The notes: a model not told the origin generated them from the sequence alone. Numbered from the stretch's first letter, positions 1,276 to 11,432 are shown. The stretch: 64,000 nucleotides of DNA from Marinicella sp. (GCA_965230295.1 OZ246001.1:512001-576000); one strand, 5' to 3'. A program made the numbers and translations.

Positions 1276-3435
1276 ATGACTCAAAAAAATAAGCCCATAA
1301 GCCCAACGTCTGACATCCCACTGAAGATCACCAAAACCCCCATGGTTATTCATGGCGACTCAGATTCTAAGCGTGCCGAAATTAAATCTCACTTCATCAA
1401 CACCTATGAAACTTATGAATGTTTGTTTGAATGCTTAAAGGATGATGAAGCTTACTACCAACAACCTGAACCGCTGCGTCATCCTTTGATATTTTATCTG
1501 GCACACACTGCAGTGTTTTTCATCAATAAATTAAGGGTGGCCAAAATCATAGAACACAATGTGGATGAAAGCATTGAATCCATGATGGCCATTGGGGTGG
1601 ATGAGATGTCTTGGGATGATTTGAATGAAGCCAATTATGATTGGCCAACAGTTGCCAAGGTTTATGAATACAGGCATAAAGTCAAAGCTTTGGTGCTTGA
1701 TTTGATTGATCAAATGCCTTTAACTTTACCCATCAATTGGGAGGATCCATTTTGGATCATCTTGATGGGTATTGAGCATGAACGGATCCATTTAGAAACC
1801 TCTTCTGTGTTGATCAGACAATTGGAGCTGAAATATGTGACCTGTTCAACTGATTGGCCACCTCACAACAAAGACCATGATGTGGTCAATAACCAACTGC
1901 TGAAAGTGCCTTCAGGCCCTGTTTCCCAAGGTCGCGAGATGCCTTCCGAAACCTATGGCTGGGACAACGAATACGGTCACTACTCTGAAGATGTGGCTGC
2001 GTTCAAAGCCGCTCAATATTTGGTTTCCAATTCCGAATTTTTGGCTTTCGTAGAAGATGGTGGCTACAAAGACCAACAATGGTGGACTGAAGAAGGCTGG
2101 CGATGGAAATGCTATAAAAAGGCAGAACACCCCACTTTTTGGCGTCAGCAGGATAATCAGTGGCTTTACCGCACCATGACTAGAGAAATAAACATGCCCT
2201 GGAGTTGGCCGGCCGATGTCAACTACTTGGAAGCCAAAGCTTTTTGTAATTGGCTGGCTGCCAGAACAGGCGAGCCCATCAGGCTGCCTACTGAAGCCGA
2301 GTGGCATCGACTGTATGAACACACCATGGGTGATCAACCTCGCTACCCCTTGTGGCAAGACACACCAGGCAACATAGAATTGTCTTATGCGGCTTCTTCT
2401 GTGCCAGTGGATCTATTCCTGTTCGGTGAACAACAGTTTGGTGATGTCATTGGTAATGTGTGGCAATGGACTGAAACCGCCATTGATGGTTTTGACGGTT
2501 TCAAAGTTCATCCGGCTTATGATGATTTTTCTGTGCCCACTTTTGATGGACAACACAATTTAATCAAAGGTGGCAGCTGGATCAGTACCGGCAATGAAGC
2601 ACACTTGGATTCACGGTATGCTTTTCGCCGACATTTTTTTCAACACGCAGGATTTAGATACGTAGAATCGGAGATAACAGTGGATCAAACATTCAATACA
2701 TACGAAACAGACGAACTCATTTCACAATACCTCGAGTTTCACTATGGTGGCGAGTATTTCGGGGTGCCCAATTTTCCCAAAGCTTGTATCGATGCCTTGA
2801 TTCCACATGTTGATTTAAGTCATAACAGCCGGGCATTGGATTTAGGTTGTGCTGTGGGCCGCAGTTCTTTTGAATTGGCCCGGTATTATGAGCATGTCGA
2901 TGCGCTTGATTTCTCAACCCGTTTCATCCGCAATGCGATCAATTTAGTGGATCATGGCGAAGTTAAATACATGATTCCCACTGAAGGTGAACTGACAGAA
3001 TTGAAGTCATTCAGCCTGGCGGATTTGGCTTTGGGCGAACAAGTCAAAAACATTGAATTTTCTCAAGGCGATGCCTGTAATTTAAAAGCTAAATACAGTG
3101 ATTATGATTTGATTTTTGCCGGCAACTTGATCGACCGTTTGTATCAACCCAAGCAATTTTTAACCAGCATCAAAGATCGCATCAAAACTGGCGGGTATTT
3201 GGTACTGACCTCACCCTACACATGGTTGGAAGAATTCACCGAAAAACAAAACTGGTTGGGTGGCATCAAAGTCAATGGCGAAAACGTCACCACCCTGGAT
3301 GCCTTAAAGACCATTTTAGGTCAAGATTTCGAACTGGTGTCCTTGCCTCAAGATGTGCCATTTGTGATCAGGGAAACAGCCAGGAAACACCAACATACAG
3401 TGGCCCAATTAAGCATTTGGAGAAAACGCAGTTAA
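1276..3435 (+). CDS. ovoA: 5-histidylcysteine sulfoxide synthase / methyltransferase OvoA (ovothiol biosynthesis)
   Basis: DinB-like domain LRHPLIFY and iron motif EHERIHLET, FGE-sulfatase domain (GNVWQW, YDDFSVP, RYAFRRHFFQHAGFRY), C-terminal SAM methyltransferase (ALDLGCAVGR). Confidence 0.95.
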   Translation: MTQKNKPISPTSDIPLKITKTPMVIHGDSDSKRAEIKSHFINTYETYECLFECLKDDEAYYQQPEPLRHPLIFYLAHTAVFFINKLRVAKIIEHNVDESIESMMAIGVDEMSWDDLNEANYDWPTVAKVYEYRHKVKALVLDLIDQMPLTLPINWEDPFWIILMGIEHERIHLETSSVLIRQLELKYVTCSTDWPPHNKDHDVVNNQLLKVPSGPVSQGREMPSETYGWDNEYGHYSEDVAAFKAAQYLVSNSEFLAFVEDGGYKDQQWWTEEGWRWKCYKKAEHPTFWRQQDNQWLYRTMTREINMPWSWPADVNYLEAKAFCNWLAARTGEPIRLPTEAEWHRLYEHTMGDQPRYPLWQDTPGNIELSYAASSVPVDLFLFGEQQFGDVIGNVWQWTETAIDGFDGFKVHPAYDDFSVPTFDGQHNLIKGGSWISTGNEAHLDSRYAFRRHFFQHAGFRYVESEITVDQTFNTYETDELISQYLEFHYGGEYFGVPNFPKACIDALIPHVDLSHNSRALDLGCAVGRSSFELARYYEHVDALDFSTRFIRNAINLVDHGEVKYMIPTEGELTELKSFSLADLALGEQVKNIEFSQGDACNLKAKYSDYDLIFAGNLIDRLYQPKQFLTSIKDRIKTGGYLVLTSPYTWLEEFTEKQNWLGGIKVNGENVTTLDALKTILGQDFELVSLPQDVPFVIRETARKHQHTVAQLSIWRKRS

Positions 3436-4536
3436 ATGAATTTCAAGCCATTCAAAATGGCGCAATTCAGTGCCCAGTGGACTCCAGGTAGCCTCCACAA
3501 CTTGCACAGCAGCAATCCCCAGCCCTGGACATGGGATGAACTGAGTGAGGTCGTCGAGACTGATCTAAACAGCCTACTTATCAAAACGCCCTTTGCCTAT
3601 GAACCGGTAGAGGGCAATCAAACCGTACGCGAACTGATCAGTCACCACTACCATTCAGGTTTGTGTGCTGCTGACATCACCCTGACTTCCGGGGCTCAAG
3701 AAGGGATTTTTCTGGTCATGCAGGCCTTGATCAATCCAGATGATCATGTGATCACTTTCAGCCCCTGTTTTGAACCACTGACTCAAGTAGCCATTGATGC
3801 AGGGGCGGAAGTGTCCATGCTGCCTTTGAATGAATCCAACGGCTGGTCAATCAACTGGGACAGGCTAAAAAGTAGCTTCAAGGATTCAACAAAGCTGGTG
3901 GTTATCAACTTCCCTCACAACCCGACAGGTGCTCACATCAGTCAAGCCGAACTGCTGAAACTGACCGCGCTTTGCGAACAGCACAATTGCTGGCTGTTTT
4001 CAGATGAAGTGTTCCGTGGTTTAGAACACCAATCCGCAGATCGCATCAGCAGTGCTGCTGACCTTTATGACAAGGCTGTATCGATGGGAGTGGTTTCTAA
4101 AGCATTGGCCTTGCCCGGTGTCAGACTCGGTTGGTTGTCATGTCAGGATGATGGCTTGCACCAACGGATTAAGACCATCAAGTCACATTTATCCATATGT
4201 CAAAGCAGTTTAGATGCACAATTGTGTCAAGCCATCATTCCTCACAGTGAAAAAATCTGGCAAAGGAGTATCGACATCATCAACGGCAATAAATCTTATC
4301 TGGCGGCTCTATTGGCAAACAATCAGGCATTCAAATGGCATCTACCAAAGGCTTCGGCCACCGCATTCATAGAGTGTCTAGATTCTGAGGCCACAGCATT
4401 ATGCCAAAATTGGGCAGAACAGCACCGCATGTTGTTGTTACCCAATGAAGTGTTCCTAACTGATGTCTCTGGTTTCAGAATGACGCTGGGATCTCAGAAC
4501 AATCGACCCATGTACGATCACATTTTTAAGATTTAG
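3436..4536 (+). CDS. PLP-dependent class I/II aminotransferase-fold enzyme; candidate OvoB-type C-S lyase
   Basis: NFPHNPTG, FSDEVFR, SKALALPGVRLGW (PLP lysine). Starts directly after the ovoA stop. Confidence 0.8.
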   Translation: MNFKPFKMAQFSAQWTPGSLHNLHSSNPQPWTWDELSEVVETDLNSLLIKTPFAYEPVEGNQTVRELISHHYHSGLCAADITLTSGAQEGIFLVMQALINPDDHVITFSPCFEPLTQVAIDAGAEVSMLPLNESNGWSINWDRLKSSFKDSTKLVVINFPHNPTGAHISQAELLKLTALCEQHNCWLFSDEVFRGLEHQSADRISSAADLYDKAVSMGVVSKALALPGVRLGWLSCQDDGLHQRIKTIKSHLSICQSSLDAQLCQAIIPHSEKIWQRSIDIINGNKSYLAALLANNQAFKWHLPKASATAFIECLDSEATALCQNWAEQHRMLLLPNEVFLTDVSGFRMTLGSQNNRPMYDHIFKI

Positions 4537-6328
4537 CAGCTGTCACTTCATGCATGATTTCGTCATAAGCAACCACTTCATTGCGACCTTTATTTTTGGC
4601 CTCAAACAAGGCCAAATCAGCATGGGTTAACAGCATAGAAATGCGGTGACCTGACAACAAGGTGTTGGTCACTCCAAAACTGGCCGTGATGTCAAAAGCG
4701 GCACCTGATTCACTGCAGTCCATCTGCTCAATGGCATGCCTCATTTTTTCCATCAAGCGCATCATTTCAAGGTGTGAAATACCTGGTGAAACGATGCTGA
4801 ACTCTTCACCACCTAGACGAGCAACGAGAATGTCTTGATCCGCCACTTCTTCACAAGTCAAAATCACTTGTTTCAACACCCAGTCACCCACCAGATGCCC
4901 AAATTGATCATTGACATTTTTAAAATGATCCAAATCCATGATCGCCAAATTGACCGGCTGGTTTTTGGCTTTATGGGTTTCTAACATGTCCTTGATCTTT
5001 TCTTCAAAAGCTTTGCGGGTGAACACCTGGGTCAAGTGGTCTATTTCTGCCACTTCTTTGAAATAATCATGCCGTTTTTTGATTTTATAGGTCCACACGC
5101 CCAACAACAGCAACAAACTGGCAATCAACAACATCATCAGCTGTTGTTTCTTGGTGGTTTCGGCTGACAACTTATTTTCCAATTCCAACAACTTGTTGTT
5201 TTGATTCAATTGATCAATTTGAAGTTCCTGCGCCAAATTAGCATGTTTAACCCTGTAATAGGCCACTTGAGTTGCCAACTTGCGTTCATAGATGGATTTT
5301 TCAATGCTGTTTTTTTGGGCCAAATAATGGTAAGCGGGTTGCATAGAATTACCTTCCAGGCTCAGTTGAATCAAAACATTCAACGCCAAAACCAATTGTT
5401 CAGATTCACCGATACTGGCATTCTCCTCGACTGCCAACACACCAAAAGCCTGGGCTTTTTCATTCAGATCAGCCATCCAATAGATGTGAGCCAGCAAGGC
5501 GTGGTAGTAAACCCTGATGTTCTTAAAGTTGGTTTTCTCAACATCATCTGCCAATGATTCCAGAACGGTCACTGCTTTCATGGCTTCTTCTGGATCAGAT
5601 TGTGCTTTATCGGTAAATTGATAGCGGATTTGGTCAAACCTTAAAAATAGCGATGAAATGTAATTATCAACTTGTTCACAGCGGTCAATGGCTGCAGTGA
5701 TTTCATCATTAAATGCTTCGCCTTTACCCTGACGCATTAAAATCCGATACTTATTAAAACCTCCCATGCATTTATCGTCCTCAGAATAATCTCCTGTCAA
5801 CAGCAATTCAGAGTACTTCAGTGCTATATCATCTTGATTCATCAACCGGTAAGAAATCGCCGCCACATTATTGGTCAATGATCTGAGGTATTTATCTTCG
5901 GTGTTTTCCGTTATTTGAATGGCTGTATTTAAATTGTTCAGCGCTTTCTCGAAATCGCCAGTAATGACTTGTAAATTGGCTGTGAACTGAAGCACTCGAG
6001 CCAAGTACTCAGGGGATTCACAAATGGTAACAATTTCATTGAGTTTATTGATTGAACTGGCGTAGTCTCCTATGAAACTTTCACGGTAAATGACTAAAAA
6101 TTCATAATGACACCGTTCATCAGGACTCATCACTGATACATGGTTTGCCAGTTCAGCCAAGCCAGCAGAAAAGCCAGTTTGATCGACTTTCCTTATCTTT
6201 TCTAATTCCAGCAACCGATGTTTAAATCCATTATCTTCAGCGTTCATGGTTTCTTGTGACCATGAAGACATGGCTGGACCAAGAATCAAACTCAGGCTAA
6301 GAAGCAGTTTAAGAAATAATTTATCCAT
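4526..6328 (-). CDS. Membrane-bound diguanylate cyclase with periplasmic TPR-like helical sensor (copy 2)
   Basis: Signal peptide (MDKLFLKLLLSLSLILG..., likely start 6328), helical repeat region, TM segment LMMLLIASLLLLLGVW, then DHLT...MDLDHFKNVNDQFGHLVGD...RLGGEEF. Confidence 0.92.
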   Translation of the reverse strand: MDKLFLKLLLSLSLILGPAMSSWSQETMNAEDNGFKHRLLELEKIRKVDQTGFSAGLAELANHVSVMSPDERCHYEFLVIYRESFIGDYASSINKLNEIVTICESPEYLARVLQFTANLQVITGDFEKALNNLNTAIQITENTEDKYLRSLTNNVAAISYRLMNQDDIALKYSELLLTGDYSEDDKCMGGFNKYRILMRQGKGEAFNDEITAAIDRCEQVDNYISSLFLRFDQIRYQFTDKAQSDPEEAMKAVTVLESLADDVEKTNFKNIRVYYHALLAHIYWMADLNEKAQAFGVLAVEENASIGESEQLVLALNVLIQLSLEGNSMQPAYHYLAQKNSIEKSIYERKLATQVAYYRVKHANLAQELQIDQLNQNNKLLELENKLSAETTKKQQLMMLLIASLLLLLGVWTYKIKKRHDYFKEVAEIDHLTQVFTRKAFEEKIKDMLETHKAKNQPVNLAIMDLDHFKNVNDQFGHLVGDWVLKQVILTCEEVADQDILVARLGGEEFSIVSPGISHLEMMRLMEKMRHAIEQMDCSESGAAFDITASFGVTNTLLSGHRISMLLTHADLALFEAKNKGRNEVVAYDEIMHEVTAAKS

Positions 6329-6385
6329 AAAATAAAAGTGCCAATGAATCACCAATGGCACTCGGTAAAAGTATTATTTCAACAA

Positions 6386-6553
6386 TCAATCTTCGTCGTC
6401 ATCATCTCCTGGGTGATGGGCGCATTTAAGTTCATTGTTTGACGACAACAATTGTTTTATCTGTACTTTTGAAAGTTGATGAGAAATTTGATTGTTTTGG
6501 TGAACCGAATCAGTTTGTCCGATAGATTCCAATATTTTCACGAGTTTATTCAT
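6386..6553 (-). CDS. Small peptide, putative split-borosin precursor A2 (55 aa; not in ORF track)
   Basis: Manual translation MNKLVKILESIGQTDSVHQNNQISHQLSKVQIKQLLSSNNELKCAHHPGDDDDED*. RBS AAAAGAGG 4 nt before ATG. Clear paralog of 9023..9202. Confidence 0.88.
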   Translation of the reverse strand: MNKLVKILESIGQTDSVHQNNQISHQLSKVQIKQLLSSNNELKCAHHPGDDDDED

Positions 6554-6583
6554 AACACCTCTTTTTATAAGTTATTAAGGAAA

Positions 6584-6610
6584 TGTTGTCATCCCCTTTA
6601 AATGACAACA
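6584..6610 (-). promoter_or_regulatory. Inverted repeat/hairpin in 5'UTR of precursor A2
   Basis: TGTTGTCAT-N9-ATGACAACA; minus strand reads TGTTGTCATTTAAAGGGGATGACAACA. Confidence 0.55.
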
Positions 6611-6630
6611 AAGCTATTCTAACATCAATT

Positions 6631-7185
6631 CTAACCAGAATACGACCCCATCCAAGCTGTCTTTTCGATAAACCATTCTTGGGTCTTTTTTTGATGGACG
6701 CCATGTTCAATGATTTTCCCTTTTTGCATTTTTAAGCGCATATTTGCTGTATTTGCAGCCACATTATCAGCCTGACAAAAAGCAATGATGGTTTCTAAGT
6801 TCAACGCTGTAAAACCATGCGCCATCATCAACTGTTTGGCATGGTGGGCCATTCTTTGACGCCGATAGGCTGATGAAATCATCACACCAATGGCTGCGAT
6901 CATTCGGCTTTCAGGCTTAAACCATGTCAAACCAATGATACCCATATTGACATCATCAATATGGCGCTTAATCACATAAGTGAGGTGATGAGGCTGATCA
7001 TCAGACATCTCTTCAATGGTCTTCTTCAGCTGTTTTTCACATTGGCTGCAGGTCAAAGGTTCACCAATAAACTGCATGACTTCTTGGTTACCATAAATTT
7101 GAACAAAAAAGTCTAAATCGCCTTGGTCTACGGGCTTCAGAAAAATGGGATACTTATTGCTGGTGATGTTGGGTCGAACAATCAA
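6631..7185 (-). CDS. GNAT N-acetyltransferase, RimJ/RimL-like (copy 2)
   Basis: VMQFIGEP, IGVMISSAYRRQRMAH, NVAANT. Probable TTG start near 7185, just after the upstream GGDEF stop; the ORF-track start at 7275 overlaps that gene. Confidence 0.8.
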   Translation of the reverse strand: MIVRPNITSNKYPIFLKPVDQGDLDFFVQIYGNQEVMQFIGEPLTCSQCEKQLKKTIEEMSDDQPHHLTYVIKRHIDDVNMGIIGLTWFKPESRMIAAIGVMISSAYRRQRMAHHAKQLMMAHGFTALNLETIIAFCQADNVAANTANMRLKMQKGKIIEHGVHQKKTQEWFIEKTAWMGSYSG

Positions 7186-7192
7186 AGGTTTC

Positions 7193-9007
7193 TCAATCTT
7201 TGTTAACCCTTTGAATGGTCTTGAACTTAATGACTTGATTACGACCTTGTTTCTTGGCTTCAAACAATGCCACATCAGCGTGGGTTAACAACAAAGGCAA
7301 AGAATAACCAGATGTGATGGATGAGGTGTATCCAAAACTGGCTGTGACTGAAAGTTCAGCGCCAGATTCATCACAATCCAGCGTTTCTACAGCAGAACGC
7401 ATCTGCTCCAATTTGGCTTCCATGACATCACATTCTACTTTTGGAAACACGATACAAAATTCTTCGCCACCCAAGCGCGCCAATATCATGTCTTCTTCTA
7501 CAAATTCCTTGATGGCATAGACCACATTTTTCAGCACCCAATCACCAATCAAATGTCCATGGGTGTCATTAACTTTCTTAAAGTGGTCCAAATCCATGAT
7601 GGCCATCTGAATGGGCAGTTTATGATCCTGACAGTAATTCAATTGCACTTTGACCTGTTCTTCAAAAGCTTTCCTGGTCAACACTTTGGTTAAATGATCT
7701 ATTTCTGAAACACCTTTGAAATAATCATGTTTCTTCTTGATTCGCACCAACCACAATGCCATGAAACCCAACAAGGTCAAAATCAACAAAATGACCAGGC
7801 GTTGGTTGTTGGTTTCTTGCTTAGCCAGTTTTTTCTCCAGCTCCAGAACTTCCTTCTGTCGATTCAACTGTTCAATTTCAAACACCTTGGCCAAATTCGA
7901 ATGCTTGACGGTCATGAAAGCCATTTGTTTGGCTTGTGACTGGTCATACATTTTAAGTTCCGCTTCGTTTTTTCGGTTCAAATAATCGTATGACTTAACA
8001 AAGTCACCGCGAGATTTAGAAATGTTTTCTAACACTTCCAGTGCCATGATTAACTGTTCTGTATAACCCAGGTTTTCATTTAAGCTGATGGTTTTTTCTC
8101 CATGTACCATCGCTTCTTCATAATCACCAACCAAGTAGGCAATTTTGGCTTCAATGGCTTTGAAATTTACTTTGATGTTTTTATAGGGTGTGGCATCAAT
8201 TTCTGCCTTCATTGACTCTACCAAATCAGCTATATAGGCCATTTCACCTGCTGCCATTCCACCTGAGGAAAGGGTTCTTTTTATATTGTCTAAAACAATC
8301 GATTGGGCATACAAAGCGTTTCCACTTTCCTTGCAATTCTTTGCAATTTCTAAGATTGTTTCTAAATCTGGGGCATCTTGGTCACCATCCAGATGATACA
8401 TATTTTTACTGTATTGAACCCGGCACAGGTTTTCATCATTGGGCTCAAGGTTGTAATGAAGTTCACTGTATTTAACACTGAGTTCTTTTTGATCTAATAA
8501 GTTATAAACCACAGACGCTCCAGAATATGCGATTAATTTAGATTTTTTATCAACCGTTTGTTCTGCGTTTTGAATGGCGTTATCGACATGGTACGAGGCT
8601 TTTTTATAGTCTCCACTGATGGCACTGATGTTGGAAATCAAGGCGTCAATTCGAATCCTTGCCCGTAAATCATCACATAGAGGAATGATTTTTTCGAGGT
8701 CTGATACTGCCTGTAAAGATTCACCGGCAAATGCCGTTTGGTAGGCCCGAAGGAACTGGTAATGGCAAACTTGGTAAGCCGACATTTGCGATAATTTGTT
8801 TTCCAGCAAATCCAAGCCAGCAATGAATTCGTTGTGGTTACTCAATCTGATGTTTTCTAAGCGCAGAATTTCTTCAGTTAAATGAGGTGGTTCTCCTGTA
8901 GAGTCTGGGTCAGCTTGTGCCAAAGTAATTTGAGGGCACAACAAAACAAAGGACATGAATAGTAACCATGTCCTTATTGTTTTATTTGAGTTTATATTTA
9001 ACAACAA
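7193..9007 (-). CDS. Membrane-bound diguanylate cyclase with periplasmic TPR-like helical sensor (copy 1)
   Basis: Signal peptide ending LAQA, helical region, TM LVILLILTLLGFMALWLV, then MDLDHFKKVNDTHGHLIGD...RLGGEEF. Paralog of 4526..6328. Confidence 0.92.
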   Translation of the reverse strand: MLLNINSNKTIRTWLLFMSFVLLCPQITLAQADPDSTGEPPHLTEEILRLENIRLSNHNEFIAGLDLLENKLSQMSAYQVCHYQFLRAYQTAFAGESLQAVSDLEKIIPLCDDLRARIRIDALISNISAISGDYKKASYHVDNAIQNAEQTVDKKSKLIAYSGASVVYNLLDQKELSVKYSELHYNLEPNDENLCRVQYSKNMYHLDGDQDAPDLETILEIAKNCKESGNALYAQSIVLDNIKRTLSSGGMAAGEMAYIADLVESMKAEIDATPYKNIKVNFKAIEAKIAYLVGDYEEAMVHGEKTISLNENLGYTEQLIMALEVLENISKSRGDFVKSYDYLNRKNEAELKMYDQSQAKQMAFMTVKHSNLAKVFEIEQLNRQKEVLELEKKLAKQETNNQRLVILLILTLLGFMALWLVRIKKKHDYFKGVSEIDHLTKVLTRKAFEEQVKVQLNYCQDHKLPIQMAIMDLDHFKKVNDTHGHLIGDWVLKNVVYAIKEFVEEDMILARLGGEEFCIVFPKVECDVMEAKLEQMRSAVETLDCDESGAELSVTASFGYTSSITSGYSLPLLLTHADVALFEAKKQGRNQVIKFKTIQRVNKD

Positions 9008-9022
9008 TAGACTGCTATCAGA

Positions 9023-9202
9023 TCACTCTTCGTCATCGTCATCTGGTAACAACAAGCAAATCAGATCATTGTTTTGCAATTTAATCTTGTTGAACGCTCG
9101 TTCCTGAATATTCATGCCTTGAATCATTTGTTTTACAGAATCATTTTGATGAATGGATTGGGTTTGTCCAATTTGTTCCAGCAGTTTTACATTGAATTTC
9201 AT
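9023..9202 (-). CDS. Small peptide, putative split-borosin precursor A1 (59 aa)
   Basis: MKFNVKLLEQIGQTQSIHQNDSVKQMIQGMNIQERAFNKIKLQNNDLICLLLPDDDDEE; ATG at 9202 with AAAAGAGG RBS. Lies between the borosin methyltransferase and a GGDEF gene, the sonM-sonA-GGDEF order of Shewanella. Confidence 0.88.
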   Translation of the reverse strand: MKFNVKLLEQIGQTQSIHQNDSVKQMIQGMNIQERAFNKIKLQNNDLICLLLPDDDDEE

Positions 9203-9238
9203 TGATAGTCCTCTTTTTAAGTTTTTTAAAGATTGCTC

Positions 9239-9256
9239 TTGTCCCCTATAGGACAA
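9239..9256 (-). promoter_or_regulatory. Inverted repeat/hairpin in 5'UTR of precursor A1
   Basis: TTGTCC-CCTATA-GGACAA; minus strand reads TTGTCCTATAGGGGACAA, similar to the hairpin before precursor A2. Confidence 0.5.
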
Positions 9257-9266
9257 AAAAATCATA

Positions 9267-10046
9267 TCATGAATGCTTAATTCGCAACAACCTATTTATT
9301 TTATCAATGTCTTTTTGCTTTTCTTGTCCTGGTGGGATCACTAAAGTGCTTTTTAATGTAACCTCTGCACAAGCTAAGTCCTTGAGCGCCAATGATTTTA
9401 TCAATGGCTTTTCTATGGGCAAGACAGCACATTCATAAATGATCACTTGGTGGTCATCAGGGTAAGTCTCCAACAACATATCAACCAACAGTTGTTTGGC
9501 TTCTTCACTGGTCTCAAATACTTTCAAAGATCTGTCACCAGCCAAAGCTATCTGCCACAAAACCAAATAAGCTGTGGGATCAAAAACGGTTTGATTGAAC
9601 ATGAAATTATTGGCTTCAAAATGCGCAATACCATAGGTTCCAGGATCTATTCCCAAATCTGCATACAAACAATCTTCGGCTGAAACACCCGGTTCCATGT
9701 GGGCTTTGAAACCTTCTTTTCTGGCCATTTCAATGGTTTGGTGTGGAGTCAAAGCAAACACCCCTGGGTGGCCATAAAAAGCACCACAAACTTTTTTCCC
9801 GGCCCTCACTTCCTTCATGATGGTCTCGTTCATTTCCTGGTATGTTTGTTTGCGCGATTTTCCTTCAGCATACAATGACTGTAAACTGATGACATTCTCA
9901 TTCATGGTACCCACCCATTCTTCCACCAATAGGTTAGATGCCGCTACAAAAACCACATCAGCCTGTTCAATAAAATTCCTCGATAAAGGGGTGATGTGAG
10001 CGCCCAAAGTCATGCCTAAGCCCACGTTGACTAAACTGCCTTTCAT
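9267..10046 (-). CDS. Borosin-type peptide alpha-N-methyltransferase (SonM/OphMA family, TP_methylase fold), stand-alone (split)
   Basis: KGSLVNVGLG, LQSLYAEGKSRKQTYQEM (Y...R...Y catalytic set), GAFYGHPGVF, MEPGVSAEDCLYADLGIDPG, LVLWQI, STLVIPP. Start ATG at 10046 overlaps the upstream TGA (ATGA). Confidence 0.92.
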   Translation of the reverse strand: MKGSLVNVGLGMTLGAHITPLSRNFIEQADVVFVAASNLLVEEWVGTMNENVISLQSLYAEGKSRKQTYQEMNETIMKEVRAGKKVCGAFYGHPGVFALTPHQTIEMARKEGFKAHMEPGVSAEDCLYADLGIDPGTYGIAHFEANNFMFNQTVFDPTAYLVLWQIALAGDRSLKVFETSEEAKQLLVDMLLETYPDDHQVIIYECAVLPIEKPLIKSLALKDLACAEVTLKSTLVIPPGQEKQKDIDKINRLLRIKHS

Positions 10047-10540
10047 TGATTCAATTTCTCCATTGTAAAATCCCACCTGACAAGGTTGAGATGTTTCTTT
10101 GCTGTTGATGTATTTTTGACTGGGACAAAGCCCATGTTTTGATAACTGATACTCGCTGCTTTGTTATCTGCATGGATATAAACGGTGCAGAGCTTCGCGG
10201 GAAACAGGCGCCGCACTTGACGCATTGCGTTCATTTGAGCCCACTTGCATACCCCTTTGTTTTGATAGGCAGGCACCACGATCATGCCTGATTCAATGCT
10301 TTCATTATGGGGGTACCAGTGCATACTTAACATGCCTGCCCGGTGCAGACCGTCAGTCGTCTCGATGATTTGATAATCCGCTGTTTGTCGTTCGATCTCT
10401 TGCAACATTTTATGGCACAATTGTGCGGCTATGTCAGGCGACACAAGGTCACCAATGTGTCGCATGATGAGCGGATCTTGATATAAATCACTGACGAATG
10501 ACTGGTCTGATTCGGCCAATCGGCGCAATTGGTATGTCAT
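10043..10540 (-). CDS. GNAT N-acetyltransferase, RimJ/RimL-like (copy 1)
   Basis: LRRLAESD, LYQDPLIMRHIG, GMIVVPAYQNKGV, NKAASISYQNMGF. Translationally coupled to the borosin methyltransferase. Confidence 0.85.
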   Translation of the reverse strand: MTYQLRRLAESDQSFVSDLYQDPLIMRHIGDLVSPDIAAQLCHKMLQEIERQTADYQIIETTDGLHRAGMLSMHWYPHNESIESGMIVVPAYQNKGVCKWAQMNAMRQVRRLFPAKLCTVYIHADNKAASISYQNMGFVPVKNTSTAKKHLNLVRWDFTMEKLNQ

Positions 10541-10616
10541 GAAAATTACATTTCCTTTTGAGGTCTCAGCTAAAACAGGCTTATGTTACTATAAACCCAA
10601 AAATCTCACACAACTT

Positions 10617-11432
10617 ATGGCTCAAATATACTTAATACTTTTCACTGTGTTGCTGGCGATCATCGTCATAATGGGGTTGATAAAATGGCGCAAGCAAAGC
10701 AAAAGACGCGCCATATACCGGCTTGAAACGCCTGAAACTTGGGTGGCGTACATCATCAATAACGTGGCACTTTACTCAGTGCTGCCATCGCACCTACAAC
10801 GAGAGCTGTTGGGCCATGTGAATATTTTTCTGTCTGAAAAATATTTTTCCGGCCATGCCGGCCTGGAGGTGACTGATGAGATGCGTGTCACCATCGCTGC
10901 CCAGGCCTGTCTGCTGCTGTTGAACCGAAAAACCAATTACTACCCCCACTTAAAAACCATCCTGATTTATCCGGCTGGATTTAAAAATCCCAATCACGAG
11001 AAACCAGGCCACCATCTGGGTGAATCTTGGGTCCGGGGGCCAGTGGTGCTGTCTTGGGCAGATGCCAAACACGGTGGCAGCAACGCCAAAGATGGCAGTA
11101 ATGTGGTGATCCACGAATTTGCTCATCAATTAGATCAAGTGGATGGTGCCGGAGATGGCAGGCCAGTCATCGAGGGCAACCAACTCAGAACTTGGGGCAA
11201 AGTCATGAGCAAAGAGTTTAAAAACCTCATTGTCAAAGCCAAAATGCGCAGAAAAACATTTTTTGACCATTACGGTGCCACCAATCCAGCAGAATTTTTT
11301 GCGGTGACTTCTGAGCATTTTTTTGAGCAGCCGCATACCTTCAAACGCAAACACGCTGAACTGTATGATTTATTGATGAAATATTACCGTTTGGACCCAG
11401 CCAGTTGGACCTCCCCTATTAAACAACGTTAA
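10617..11432 (+). CDS. Zinc-dependent peptidase, M90/MtfA family, N-terminal membrane anchor
   Basis: IAAQACL, GESWVRGPVVLSW, NVVIHEFAHQLD, YGATNPAEFFAV.SEHFFE; likely start ATG 10617. Confidence 0.9.
   Translation: MAQIYLILFTVLLAIIVIMGLIKWRKQSKRRAIYRLETPETWVAYIINNVALYSVLPSHLQRELLGHVNIFLSEKYFSGHAGLEVTDEMRVTIAAQACLLLLNRKTNYYPHLKTILIYPAGFKNPNHEKPGHHLGESWVRGPVVLSWADAKHGGSNAKDGSNVVIHEFAHQLDQVDGAGDGRPVIEGNQLRTWGKVMSKEFKNLIVKAKMRRKTFFDHYGATNPAEFFAVTSEHFFEQPHTFKRKHAELYDLLMKYYRLDPASWTSPIKQR

Follow-up and report, generated by a model that had tools for sequence, protein, structure and literature searches.

More than 1,600 split borosin clusters, whose products are peptides made on the ribosome and modified after translation (RiPPs), were reported by Imani et al. 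(bioRxiv 10.1101/2021.12.24.474128). The GGDEF domain was the commonest accessory Pfam domain, occurring in 56% of the clusters, mostly as a separate gene for a protein predicted to span the membrane and to carry a periplasmic TPR region; PF13302 acetyltransferases were found in approximately 26%, and in the Type X borosins the methyltransferase is fused to the GGDEF protein. The son cluster of Shewanella oneidensis MR-1, whose product is shewanellamide A, consists, in the accessible part of Crone et al. (PMC10549244), of the methyltransferase SonM, the precursor SonA, the GGDEF protein SO1480 and the cation efflux protein SO1481, and its native role is there called elusive. For Shewanella amazonensis, the available portion of Lee et al. 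(bioRxiv 10.1101/2024.01.09.574750) reports that SamA1, once methylated by SamM1 at Phe52, is cleaved at the Phe53–Pro54 bond by a pepsin-like peptidase, shewasin A (SamP), and that the anionic peptide so released is unmethylated; genes for such peptidases are found within the cluster or at other sites of the genome, the sam cluster contains a PF13302 gene, and one cluster has 11 precursors. Among the papers searched, borosins and di-GMP were found together only in Imani et al., and we found neither a function given for the peptides or for their association with GGDEF proteins nor a published test of a link between peptide and cyclase, although supplementary tables may list similar loci. Here we analyse a locus in a stretch of 64,000 nucleotides (nt) from Marinicella sp. 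(GCA_965230295.1 OZ246001.1:512001-576000), hereafter the window, which begins at 0.51 Mb of the chromosome. The locus belongs to the published kind, a split borosin cluster with a GGDEF partner, and is very probably a Type IV split borosin RiPP locus, in a two-module form, of a Marinicella-like gammaproteobacterium. Each of its two precursor genes stands directly before the gene of a membrane cyclase, and across relatives the class of the peptide core tracks the sensor of that cyclase exactly.

The locus comprises seven co-oriented open reading frames (ORFs) on the minus strand, between positions 4526 and 10540 (Table 1), in the order GNAT1, methyltransferase, precursor A1, cyclase DGC1, GNAT2, precursor A2 and cyclase DGC2. 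An earlier note on this DNA had listed six annotated genes and one unannotated peptide, co-oriented and tightly packed, and all seven were found where it had placed them; the membrane cyclase that it assigned to each precursor is likewise adjacent, and the pairing is conserved in relatives. Only 15 nt separate the end of A1 from DGC1, and 24 nt the end of A2 from DGC2. Of 26 candidate peptide genes, 24 are followed by the start of a cyclase within 179 nt (median 27 nt), the two exceptions being a false positive of the search pattern and a gene cut by a contig end. Wherever it could be judged, the precursor gene thus immediately precedes the cyclase gene, and this constant unit is a new observation. 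A profile of the sensor region alone gave exactly two strong matches in the window's own genome, both at the locus, which equals the number of precursors (two peptide matches).

The sensor domains were then compared in a tree of 29 rows (quick IQ-TREE, with support by the Shimodaira–Hasegawa-like approximate likelihood-ratio test, SH-aLRT), and the groups of this tree agree exactly with the class of the peptide whose gene precedes each cyclase, with no exception in 26 rows. The eight rows of the class C-(L/V/M)-x-x-P-D form a group with support of 100, within which the C-V-L-F (three rows) and C-(L/M)-(L/I)-L (five rows) forms each have support of 95, and the classes C-x-H-x-P-G (six rows) and C-L-V-E-P-E (two rows) both have support of 100. 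The exact tracking of the cyclase sensor clade by the precursor core class is also new. It concerns the faster-changing part of the cyclase: among orthologues of DGC1 the sensor is 45–59% identical compared with 59–80% for the GGDEF domain, and among those of DGC2 the values are 43–67% and 62–84%, respectively.

Counting the window's own genome, 25 of the 41 related genomes have the methyltransferase, as do 16 of the 23 congeners. The surroundings of the locus are fixed within the genus, with OvoA and an aminotransferase on one side and an M90 peptidase and a flavin adenine dinucleotide (FAD) oxidase on the other, while the locus itself varies across Marinicella genomes between one and three precursor–cyclase pairs, which is again new. 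Writing G for GNAT, M for methyltransferase, a for precursor and D for cyclase, the window layout G-M-a-D-G-a-D is that of L021, L022 and L023; L024 has two modules, each with its own methyltransferase, and L025 has three precursor–cyclase pairs; L029 reads G-a-D-M-a-D, L026 and L037 read M-G-a-D, and L027 reads M-a-D-G-D, the last cyclase having no peptide before it; a single G-M-a-D is found in L028, L030, L034, L035, L036 and L038. The earlier note had read the locus as a tandem duplication. The two modules are indeed paralogous, A1 and A2 being 40% identical (E 3e-12) and DGC1 and DGC2 39% identical over 554 residues (E 6e-132), but a simple tandem duplication was set aside, because GNAT1 and GNAT2 share just 22% identity (E 1e-5) and the layouts among relatives are mixed.

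Table 1. Positions of the genes and hairpins of the locus, of flanking genes in the window and of the pepsin-like peptidase genes elsewhere in the same genome (aa, amino acids; E, expectation value).
Feature	Position	Strand	Description
GNAT1	10043-10540	-	165 aa; PF13302 (Acetyltransf_3), E 3.5e-10
Borosin methyltransferase, SonM type	9267-10046	-	259 aa from ATG; PF00590, E 8.4e-21
Hairpin before A1	~9239-9256	-	6-pair stem (by eye)
Precursor A1	9023-9202	-	59 aa from family-consistent ATG; no Pfam match
Cyclase DGC1 (GGDEF1)	7193-9007	-	604 aa; PF00990, E 6.9e-36
GNAT2	6631-7275	-	214-aa ORF; PF13302, E 1.2e-19
Hairpin before A2	6584-6610	-	11-pair stem (terminator scan)
Precursor A2	6386-6553	-	55 aa; no Pfam match
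Cyclase DGC2 (GGDEF2)	4526-6361	-	611 aa; PF00990, E 7.8e-35; weak TPR_12 match
OvoA gene, then aminotransferase-like gene	1276-4536	+	OvoA; pyridoxal phosphate (PLP)-dependent aminotransferase-like
M90 (MtfA-like) metallopeptidase	10539-11432	+	N-terminal hydrophobic stretch
Pepsin-like copy 1	G000:C1:2087758-2088999 (~2.088 Mb)		414 aa; Pfam Asp, E 4e-17; two D-S-G motifs
Pepsin-like copy 2	~0.207 Mb		35% identical to copy 1
Pepsin-like fragment	G000:C1:2078849-2079058	-	70 residues, 53% identity, two stop codons; 9 kb from intact copy

In the wider survey, which took one genome per species, at least 589 relatives of the methyltransferase were found and the best 80 loci were kept; the 58 of these with at least 6 kb downstream of the methyltransferase are the basis of the counts that follow. 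A full-length homologous cyclase lies on the same strand at 55 of the 58 loci, and two or more such cyclases at 11; a GNAT is present at 19 and a second methyltransferase at one. A precursor before the cyclase was found by pattern at no fewer than 39 of the 58, which is a lower bound because the pattern overlooked many precursors: when the 18 loci with no pattern-found precursor beside the cyclase were inspected, at least 15 proved to hold a missed leader-type peptide. Two precursors lie close before a cyclase at eight loci, namely three of the Marinicella family (already counted), four of other genera (L102, L107, L120 and L131) and L098, the last having both precursors before a single cyclase. 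The repeated modules for which the earlier note had proposed a neighbourhood survey thus recur as repeated pairs (L102, L107, L120, L131), in a minority of loci. Its view that the architecture had not been characterised does not hold for the kind, since the GGDEF, PF13302 and TPR–transmembrane (TM)–GGDEF partners had already been published by Imani et al., at the frequencies given above, and the sam cluster also has a PF13302 gene. L074, L125 and L128 are loci in which the Cys-rich patch is duplicated within a single peptide or a cyclase is preceded by two to three distinct precursors.

Both precursor genes have an AGAGG ribosome-binding site 5–7 nt 5' of the ATG, and their products belong to a peptide family for which 26 sequences, from the genus and its family, were aligned over 59 columns. 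Invariant in this alignment are M1, L8, E9, C49, P53 and D55, and almost invariant are G12, Q13, S16, Q19 and D56; from the N-terminus the peptides have a helical leader with the motif L-E-x-x-G-Q, a variable stretch, a cysteine with the three residues that follow it, the invariant proline, and a run of Asp and Glu to the C-terminus. Around the invariant proline, A1 has the class-1 patch C-L-L-L and the tail DDDDEE, and A2, of the same leader family, has the class-2 patch C-A-H-H and the tail GDDDDED; class-2 orthologues of A2 occur in five relatives. A search of a library of 1.84 billion proteins placed 86 representative clusters in the A1-type family at E <= 0.001, and of 401 genomes that were sampled across the order, 34 carried the compact form of the precursor, with the own family (43 genomes) accounting for 31 of these. 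The ribosome-binding sites, the conserved family of 26 sequences and the 86 clusters together show that A1 and A2 are real genes and not chance ORFs.

The kinship of these short peptides with the described borosin precursors was traced in two steps. Against 51 aligned rows of longer precursors, taken from other genera, the 26-row profile gave an hhalign probability of 98.5% (E 3.9e-15), and the profile of those longer precursors matched the SonA chains (E 1e-4 over positions 1–57). Through this chain, homology of the A1 and A2 leaders to the SonA/SamA1 leader family is suggested at the level of sequence profiles, and the two peptides appear to be shortened relatives of that family, with approximately 11–13 leader positions missing relative to the longer forms. 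The AlphaFold model of A1 (90-row alignment; mean predicted local distance difference test score, pLDDT, 82.5) has helices at residues 2–14, 23–29 and 34–41, with residues 42–59 extended, and would make the A1 leader a mini-version of the five-helix SonA leader. Foldseek comparison of this peptide model with the PDB gave no matches.

For the methyltransferase, the best sequence matches in the PDB are the SonM chains (7ltc_A and others; E 6e-72, 245 bits), followed by the fungal OphMA, dbOphMA and MroMA (E 1e-42 to 1e-47; OphMA approximately 157 bits), whereas the tetrapyrrole/YabN models of NCBIfam fell far under their cut-off (best 55 bits against 525). A tetrapyrrole methylase, which the earlier note had named as the alternative, is ruled out because SonM and OphMA are far closer, and the identification of the enzyme as a SonM-type borosin methyltransferase is upheld. 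The three borosin motifs quoted for it are all in the translation; FYGHPGVF and SAEDCLYADLGIDPG represent the borosin YGHP and DCL(F/Y)AD motifs, for which models are named in Imani et al. Residues Y58, R67, Y71 and Y93 of SonM, described as important in the accessible part of Miller et al. (PMC8429565), align to Y59, R65, Y69 and Y91 of the window enzyme, and all four are invariant in 13 relatives.

The methyltransferase gave a single match in its own genome and is therefore the sole copy. In a tree of methyltransferases it falls in a supported clade of eight rows that includes the enzymes of L026 and L037, two loci at which an A2-class precursor alone lies beside the methyltransferase. This supports, at the sequence level, the handling of both precursor classes by one enzyme lineage, and because the same lineage adjoins an A2-class precursor alone in these relatives and is represented by one gene here, the proposal that a single methyltransferase serves both precursors is plausible.

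The genes are closely packed. The stop of GNAT1 overlaps the ATG of the methyltransferase as ATGA (10043-10046), and the methyltransferase stop lies 64 nt from the start of A1. The methyltransferase ORF extends up to a GTG at 10076 and that of A1 up to 9265. A2 is 2.7 kb from the methyltransferase, with DGC1 and GNAT2 between, and is its neighbour solely in the sense of belonging to one locus. Both precursor genes are preceded by a hairpin (Table 1), which could set the ratio of precursor to upstream gene or mark a processing site. The flanking OvoA (5-histidylcysteine sulfoxide synthase and 4-mercaptohistidine methyltransferase) scores above the cut-off of both NCBIfam models; its gene and the aminotransferase-like gene directly after it flank the locus in most of the Marinicella genomes examined. 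On the other side, the M90 metallopeptidase gene is divergent from GNAT1.

In the predicted architecture of both cyclases, a hydrophobic helix at the N-terminus is followed by an all-helical sensor of TPR-like form in the periplasm, and a single helix then crosses the membrane to a GGDEF domain. In the model of DGC1 (100-row alignment; pLDDT 92.6) there is a helix at 10–29, sixteen helices lie within 41–332, and a continuous helix, 336–435, leads to the GGDEF fold; hydropathy places a hydrophobic peak at 401–407, inside that long helix. DGC2 has hydrophobic peaks near 9–15 and 405–410 and the same order of domains. By comparison with the ESM Atlas the sensor is TPR-like (0.94). The matches listed by Foldseek for the whole DGC1 model against the PDB were all to GGDEF domains (E 1e-12) and were uninformative on the sensor. 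Between DGC1 and DGC2 the sensors are 29% identical and the GGDEF domains 54%. The GGEEF motif is intact and invariant in all 100 homologues compared, so that the cyclases are likely to be active. The RxxD inhibitory site, present in 60 of these 100, is absent from all 26 rows of the window family, both window cyclases included. C195 and C225 of the sensor are also invariant in the 100 homologues; a disulfide between the peptide cysteine and these two residues is not favoured, because the sensor cysteines persist where the peptides have no cysteine. A model of the complex of the DGC1 sensor (residues 31–390; 100-row alignment) with A1 (26-row alignment), made without controls, scored 0.02 against a mark of 0.32 and is evidence neither for nor against binding.

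Pepsin-like peptidases of family PF00026 represent the type reported to cut methylated SamA1. Their genes are rare in bacteria, with none in 14 control genomes; 17 of the 41 relatives have them, and the same 17 were obtained with the protein of the own genome as query. The own genome has two full-length PF00026 genes and a short fragment (Table 1), all far from the locus, and the combination of a single methyltransferase with two distant pepsin-like peptidases in one genome is new. The two D-S-G motifs of copy 1 are, we assume, the catalytic motifs of the family. The neighbours of these genes in the own genome are unrelated to the locus (patatin, UmuDC-like genes and a regulator). A peptidase is present in 14 of the 25 methyltransferase-positive genomes, compared with three of the 16 methyltransferase-negative genomes, of which two are 76% and 81% complete. 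In three congeners (L030, L055 and L056) the peptidase gene lies directly after a precursor–cyclase pair, in convergent orientation, and in the wider survey a peptidase was present at 12 of the 58 loci and at 18 of the 74 loci outside Marinicella. By analogy with SamA1, a cleavage route of the same type is plausible here. The M90 peptidase beside the locus was set aside as the maturation protease: it is a neighbour throughout the genus but not in other genera, and its position therefore probably reflects synteny rather than membership of the cassette. Separately, a small, unrelated GGDEF protein is encoded approximately 3.4 kb upstream of pepsin-like copy 2 (L053:3515-4519 (+); ~0.2025-0.2035 Mb in the own genome), and GGDEF matches lie 1.5–2 kb from the orthologue of that copy in three congeners (L058, L059 and L062).

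Searches of the PDB and NCBIfam with the GNATs gave weak matches to polyamine acetyltransferases alone (for GNAT1, diamine acetyltransferases in the PDB), from which no substrate can be named. Orthologues of GNAT1 lie upstream of the methyltransferase in relatives. The ORF of GNAT2, taken from its first ATG, overlaps the end of DGC1 by 83 nt, and its matches in relatives begin at about residue 31–46; translation may in fact begin downstream of the overlap. A GNAT and a leader-type precursor form a single 298-aa ORF in another genus (L121:8786-9680 (+)), with a tail rich in Lys, Pro and Ala rather than acidic residues, and a leader–GNAT fusion is also mentioned in the available portion of Lee et al.; such an ORF may reflect a GNAT that acts on the precursor.

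We propose the following explanation, which as a whole we hold at a probability of roughly 0.4. The single methyltransferase would probably dock on the helical leader of both precursors and N-methylate at least one backbone amide in the C-x-x-x patch before the proline, as the kinship of enzyme and leaders suggests. Methylation might then, as a tentative extension of the SamA1/SamP precedent, license cleavage at x|Pro by one of the two pepsin-like peptidases, and by the same analogy the products would be a leader fragment ending in the class-specific methylated patch and a poly-Asp/Glu tail of 7–8 residues; in relatives with no pepsin-like peptidase another protease would have to act, perhaps further upstream, as in SonA. 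That the PF13302 GNATs acetylate an amino group of the processed peptide is doubtful but conceivable. Finally, though we think it less likely than not, the processed peptide, or the state of processing, could be the input of the cyclase encoded next, in which case cyclic di-GMP (c-di-GMP) would be fed through two parallel precursor–cyclase pairs. That the peptides and cyclases act together we infer from the gene order, the one-to-one pairing, the matching of classes and the published fusions. The earlier note had envisaged an N-methylated, possibly acylated, peptide signal; the anionic peptide released from SamA1, the only relative of this precursor type to have been studied, carried no methylation.

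In its most explicit form, this explanation makes the modules cognate signal/receptor pairs, in which a methylation-gated, protease-released peptide would be sensed by its own cyclase, a self-made cue being turned into c-di-GMP, with the peptide classes behaving like pherotypes, one methyltransferase serving the one to three channels of a Marinicella genome, and solo cyclases listening in; we think it unlikely that all of this applies. The agreement of peptide class and sensor clade is consistent with cognate pairs, but it is no proof, because linked inheritance of the pair gives the same pattern, and several further observations weigh against the explanation. Eleven of the 25 methyltransferase-positive relatives have no pepsin-like gene, and the SamA1-type route cannot therefore be universal. 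When all ORFs of at least 120 aa from the 74 non-Marinicella loci were clustered, the few families that recurred were those of the methyltransferase (at 74 loci), of the GGDEF protein (at 67) and of the pepsin-like peptidase, the remaining clusters being shadow ORFs or families in 10 loci or fewer; neither an exporter nor any other conserved gene goes with the cassette in this set, and the translations of A1 and A2 have no signal peptide, which raises the question of how they would reach a periplasmic sensor. The tails of A1 and A2 are nearly alike, and the positions that distinguish the classes would end up in the leader fragment after a SamP-type cut. The sensors are themselves acidic (net charge −14 and −17 for the window cyclases; median −8 over 60 sequences), so that simple binding of a polyanionic tail is not favoured, and sensor-cyclases with no detectable precursor occur in G014, G016, G018, G020 and G021. 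As for the peptides, SonA was not found in the PDB either with A1 alone or with the 26-row profile, and the modelled A1 leader has three helices where five are described for SonA.

The lack of a conserved exporter in those 74 loci would cause no difficulty if the coupling were cytoplasmic, with the state of the sensor gating methylation or cleavage, or with bound precursor holding the GGDEF domain off until it is processed, since no export is then needed. The precursor and cyclase genes are almost contiguous, which would suit proteins that assemble together, and the Type X borosins of Imani et al. carry the methyltransferase as a C-terminal extension of a TPR-TM-GGDEF protein, so that both lie in the cytoplasm. 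However, it is the precursor and not the methyltransferase that invariably adjoins the cyclase, module 2 has no adjacent methyltransferase, and the fast-evolving part that tracks the peptide class is the predicted periplasmic sensor and not the GGDEF domain (see the identities above); such a cytoplasmic coupling seems to us improbable. The existence of family cyclases with no precursor would also be understandable if the peptide were an end product in its own right, anionic, metal-binding or antagonistic, and the cyclase co-regulated lifestyle without sensing it. The available portion of Lee et al. records the free anionic C-terminal SamA1 peptide in cell extracts and points to antimicrobial anionic peptides, a cation efflux gene is listed for the S. 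oneidensis cluster in Crone et al., and the Cys, His and poly-Asp of A2 would suit metal binding. Against this, a poly-Asp/Glu peptide of 7–8 residues is a poor candidate for an antibiotic, neither an immunity nor an export gene recurs in the 74 loci, and a one-to-one, class-matched sensor pairing over dozens of loci asks for more than co-regulation, and we doubt that the peptide is the end in itself. That no functional link exists, and that the cyclases and GNATs are neighbours by synteny alone, is very improbable: the whole locus does sit in the conserved frame of the genus (OvoA/aminotransferase and M90/FAD oxidase), but the cassette recurs in unrelated contexts of many genera, at the 55 of 58 loci counted above and in 56% of the clusters of Imani et al., who also describe the fused forms.

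If split borosin precursors and the cyclases encoded behind them are cognate pairs, this would be the first biological function for the widespread bacterial borosins. Marinicella offers a compact natural series, with one, two or three precursor–cyclase pairs, modules that have or lack a methyltransferase or GNAT of their own, precursor-less cyclases, and genomes with and without a pepsin-like peptidase; this modular series at the level of a genus, together with the strict adjacency and the matching of classes, makes the question of borosin function testable. The precursors are short (55–59 aa, with a four-residue patch and a tail of 6–8 residues), and hence simple to synthesize and trackable by mass spectrometry, and the locus is a useful comparative system for asking whether a ribosomal peptide feeds c-di-GMP signalling.

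Among described systems, the son cluster shares with this locus a stand-alone methyltransferase of the same family, a neighbouring gene for a short precursor whose leader is helical, and a GGDEF protein in the cluster; neither cluster encodes a protease or exporter for the peptide. It differs in that here there are two precursors, two cyclases and two GNATs and no efflux gene, and in that the leader is shorter (three modelled helices) and is followed by a Cys-x3-Pro patch and a poly-acidic tail instead of the SonA C-terminus. The sam cluster has the same succession of hydrophobic patch, proline and anionic tail, a PF13302 gene in the cluster and a pepsin-like A1 peptidase in the genome, whereas in the present case the peptidases lie far from the locus, the tails have 6–8 residues and a near-invariant cysteine stands before the patch. 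The Type X borosins likewise bring together the three functions, with a sensor of the same architecture; here they are encoded by separate ORFs, and the neighbour of the cyclase is the precursor rather than the methyltransferase. In ComQXP of Bacillus subtilis, a modifying enzyme, a precursor of approximately 55 aa and a membrane receptor are encoded with no dedicated exporter, and peptide and receptor diversify together into classes. The comparison concerns only how the systems might work, as the proteins are unrelated, the output here is c-di-GMP rather than phosphorylation, and sensing of the peptide is here a proposal; nevertheless, the two systems are alike in their gene order, in doing without a dedicated exporter and in the joint diversification of peptide and sensor classes.

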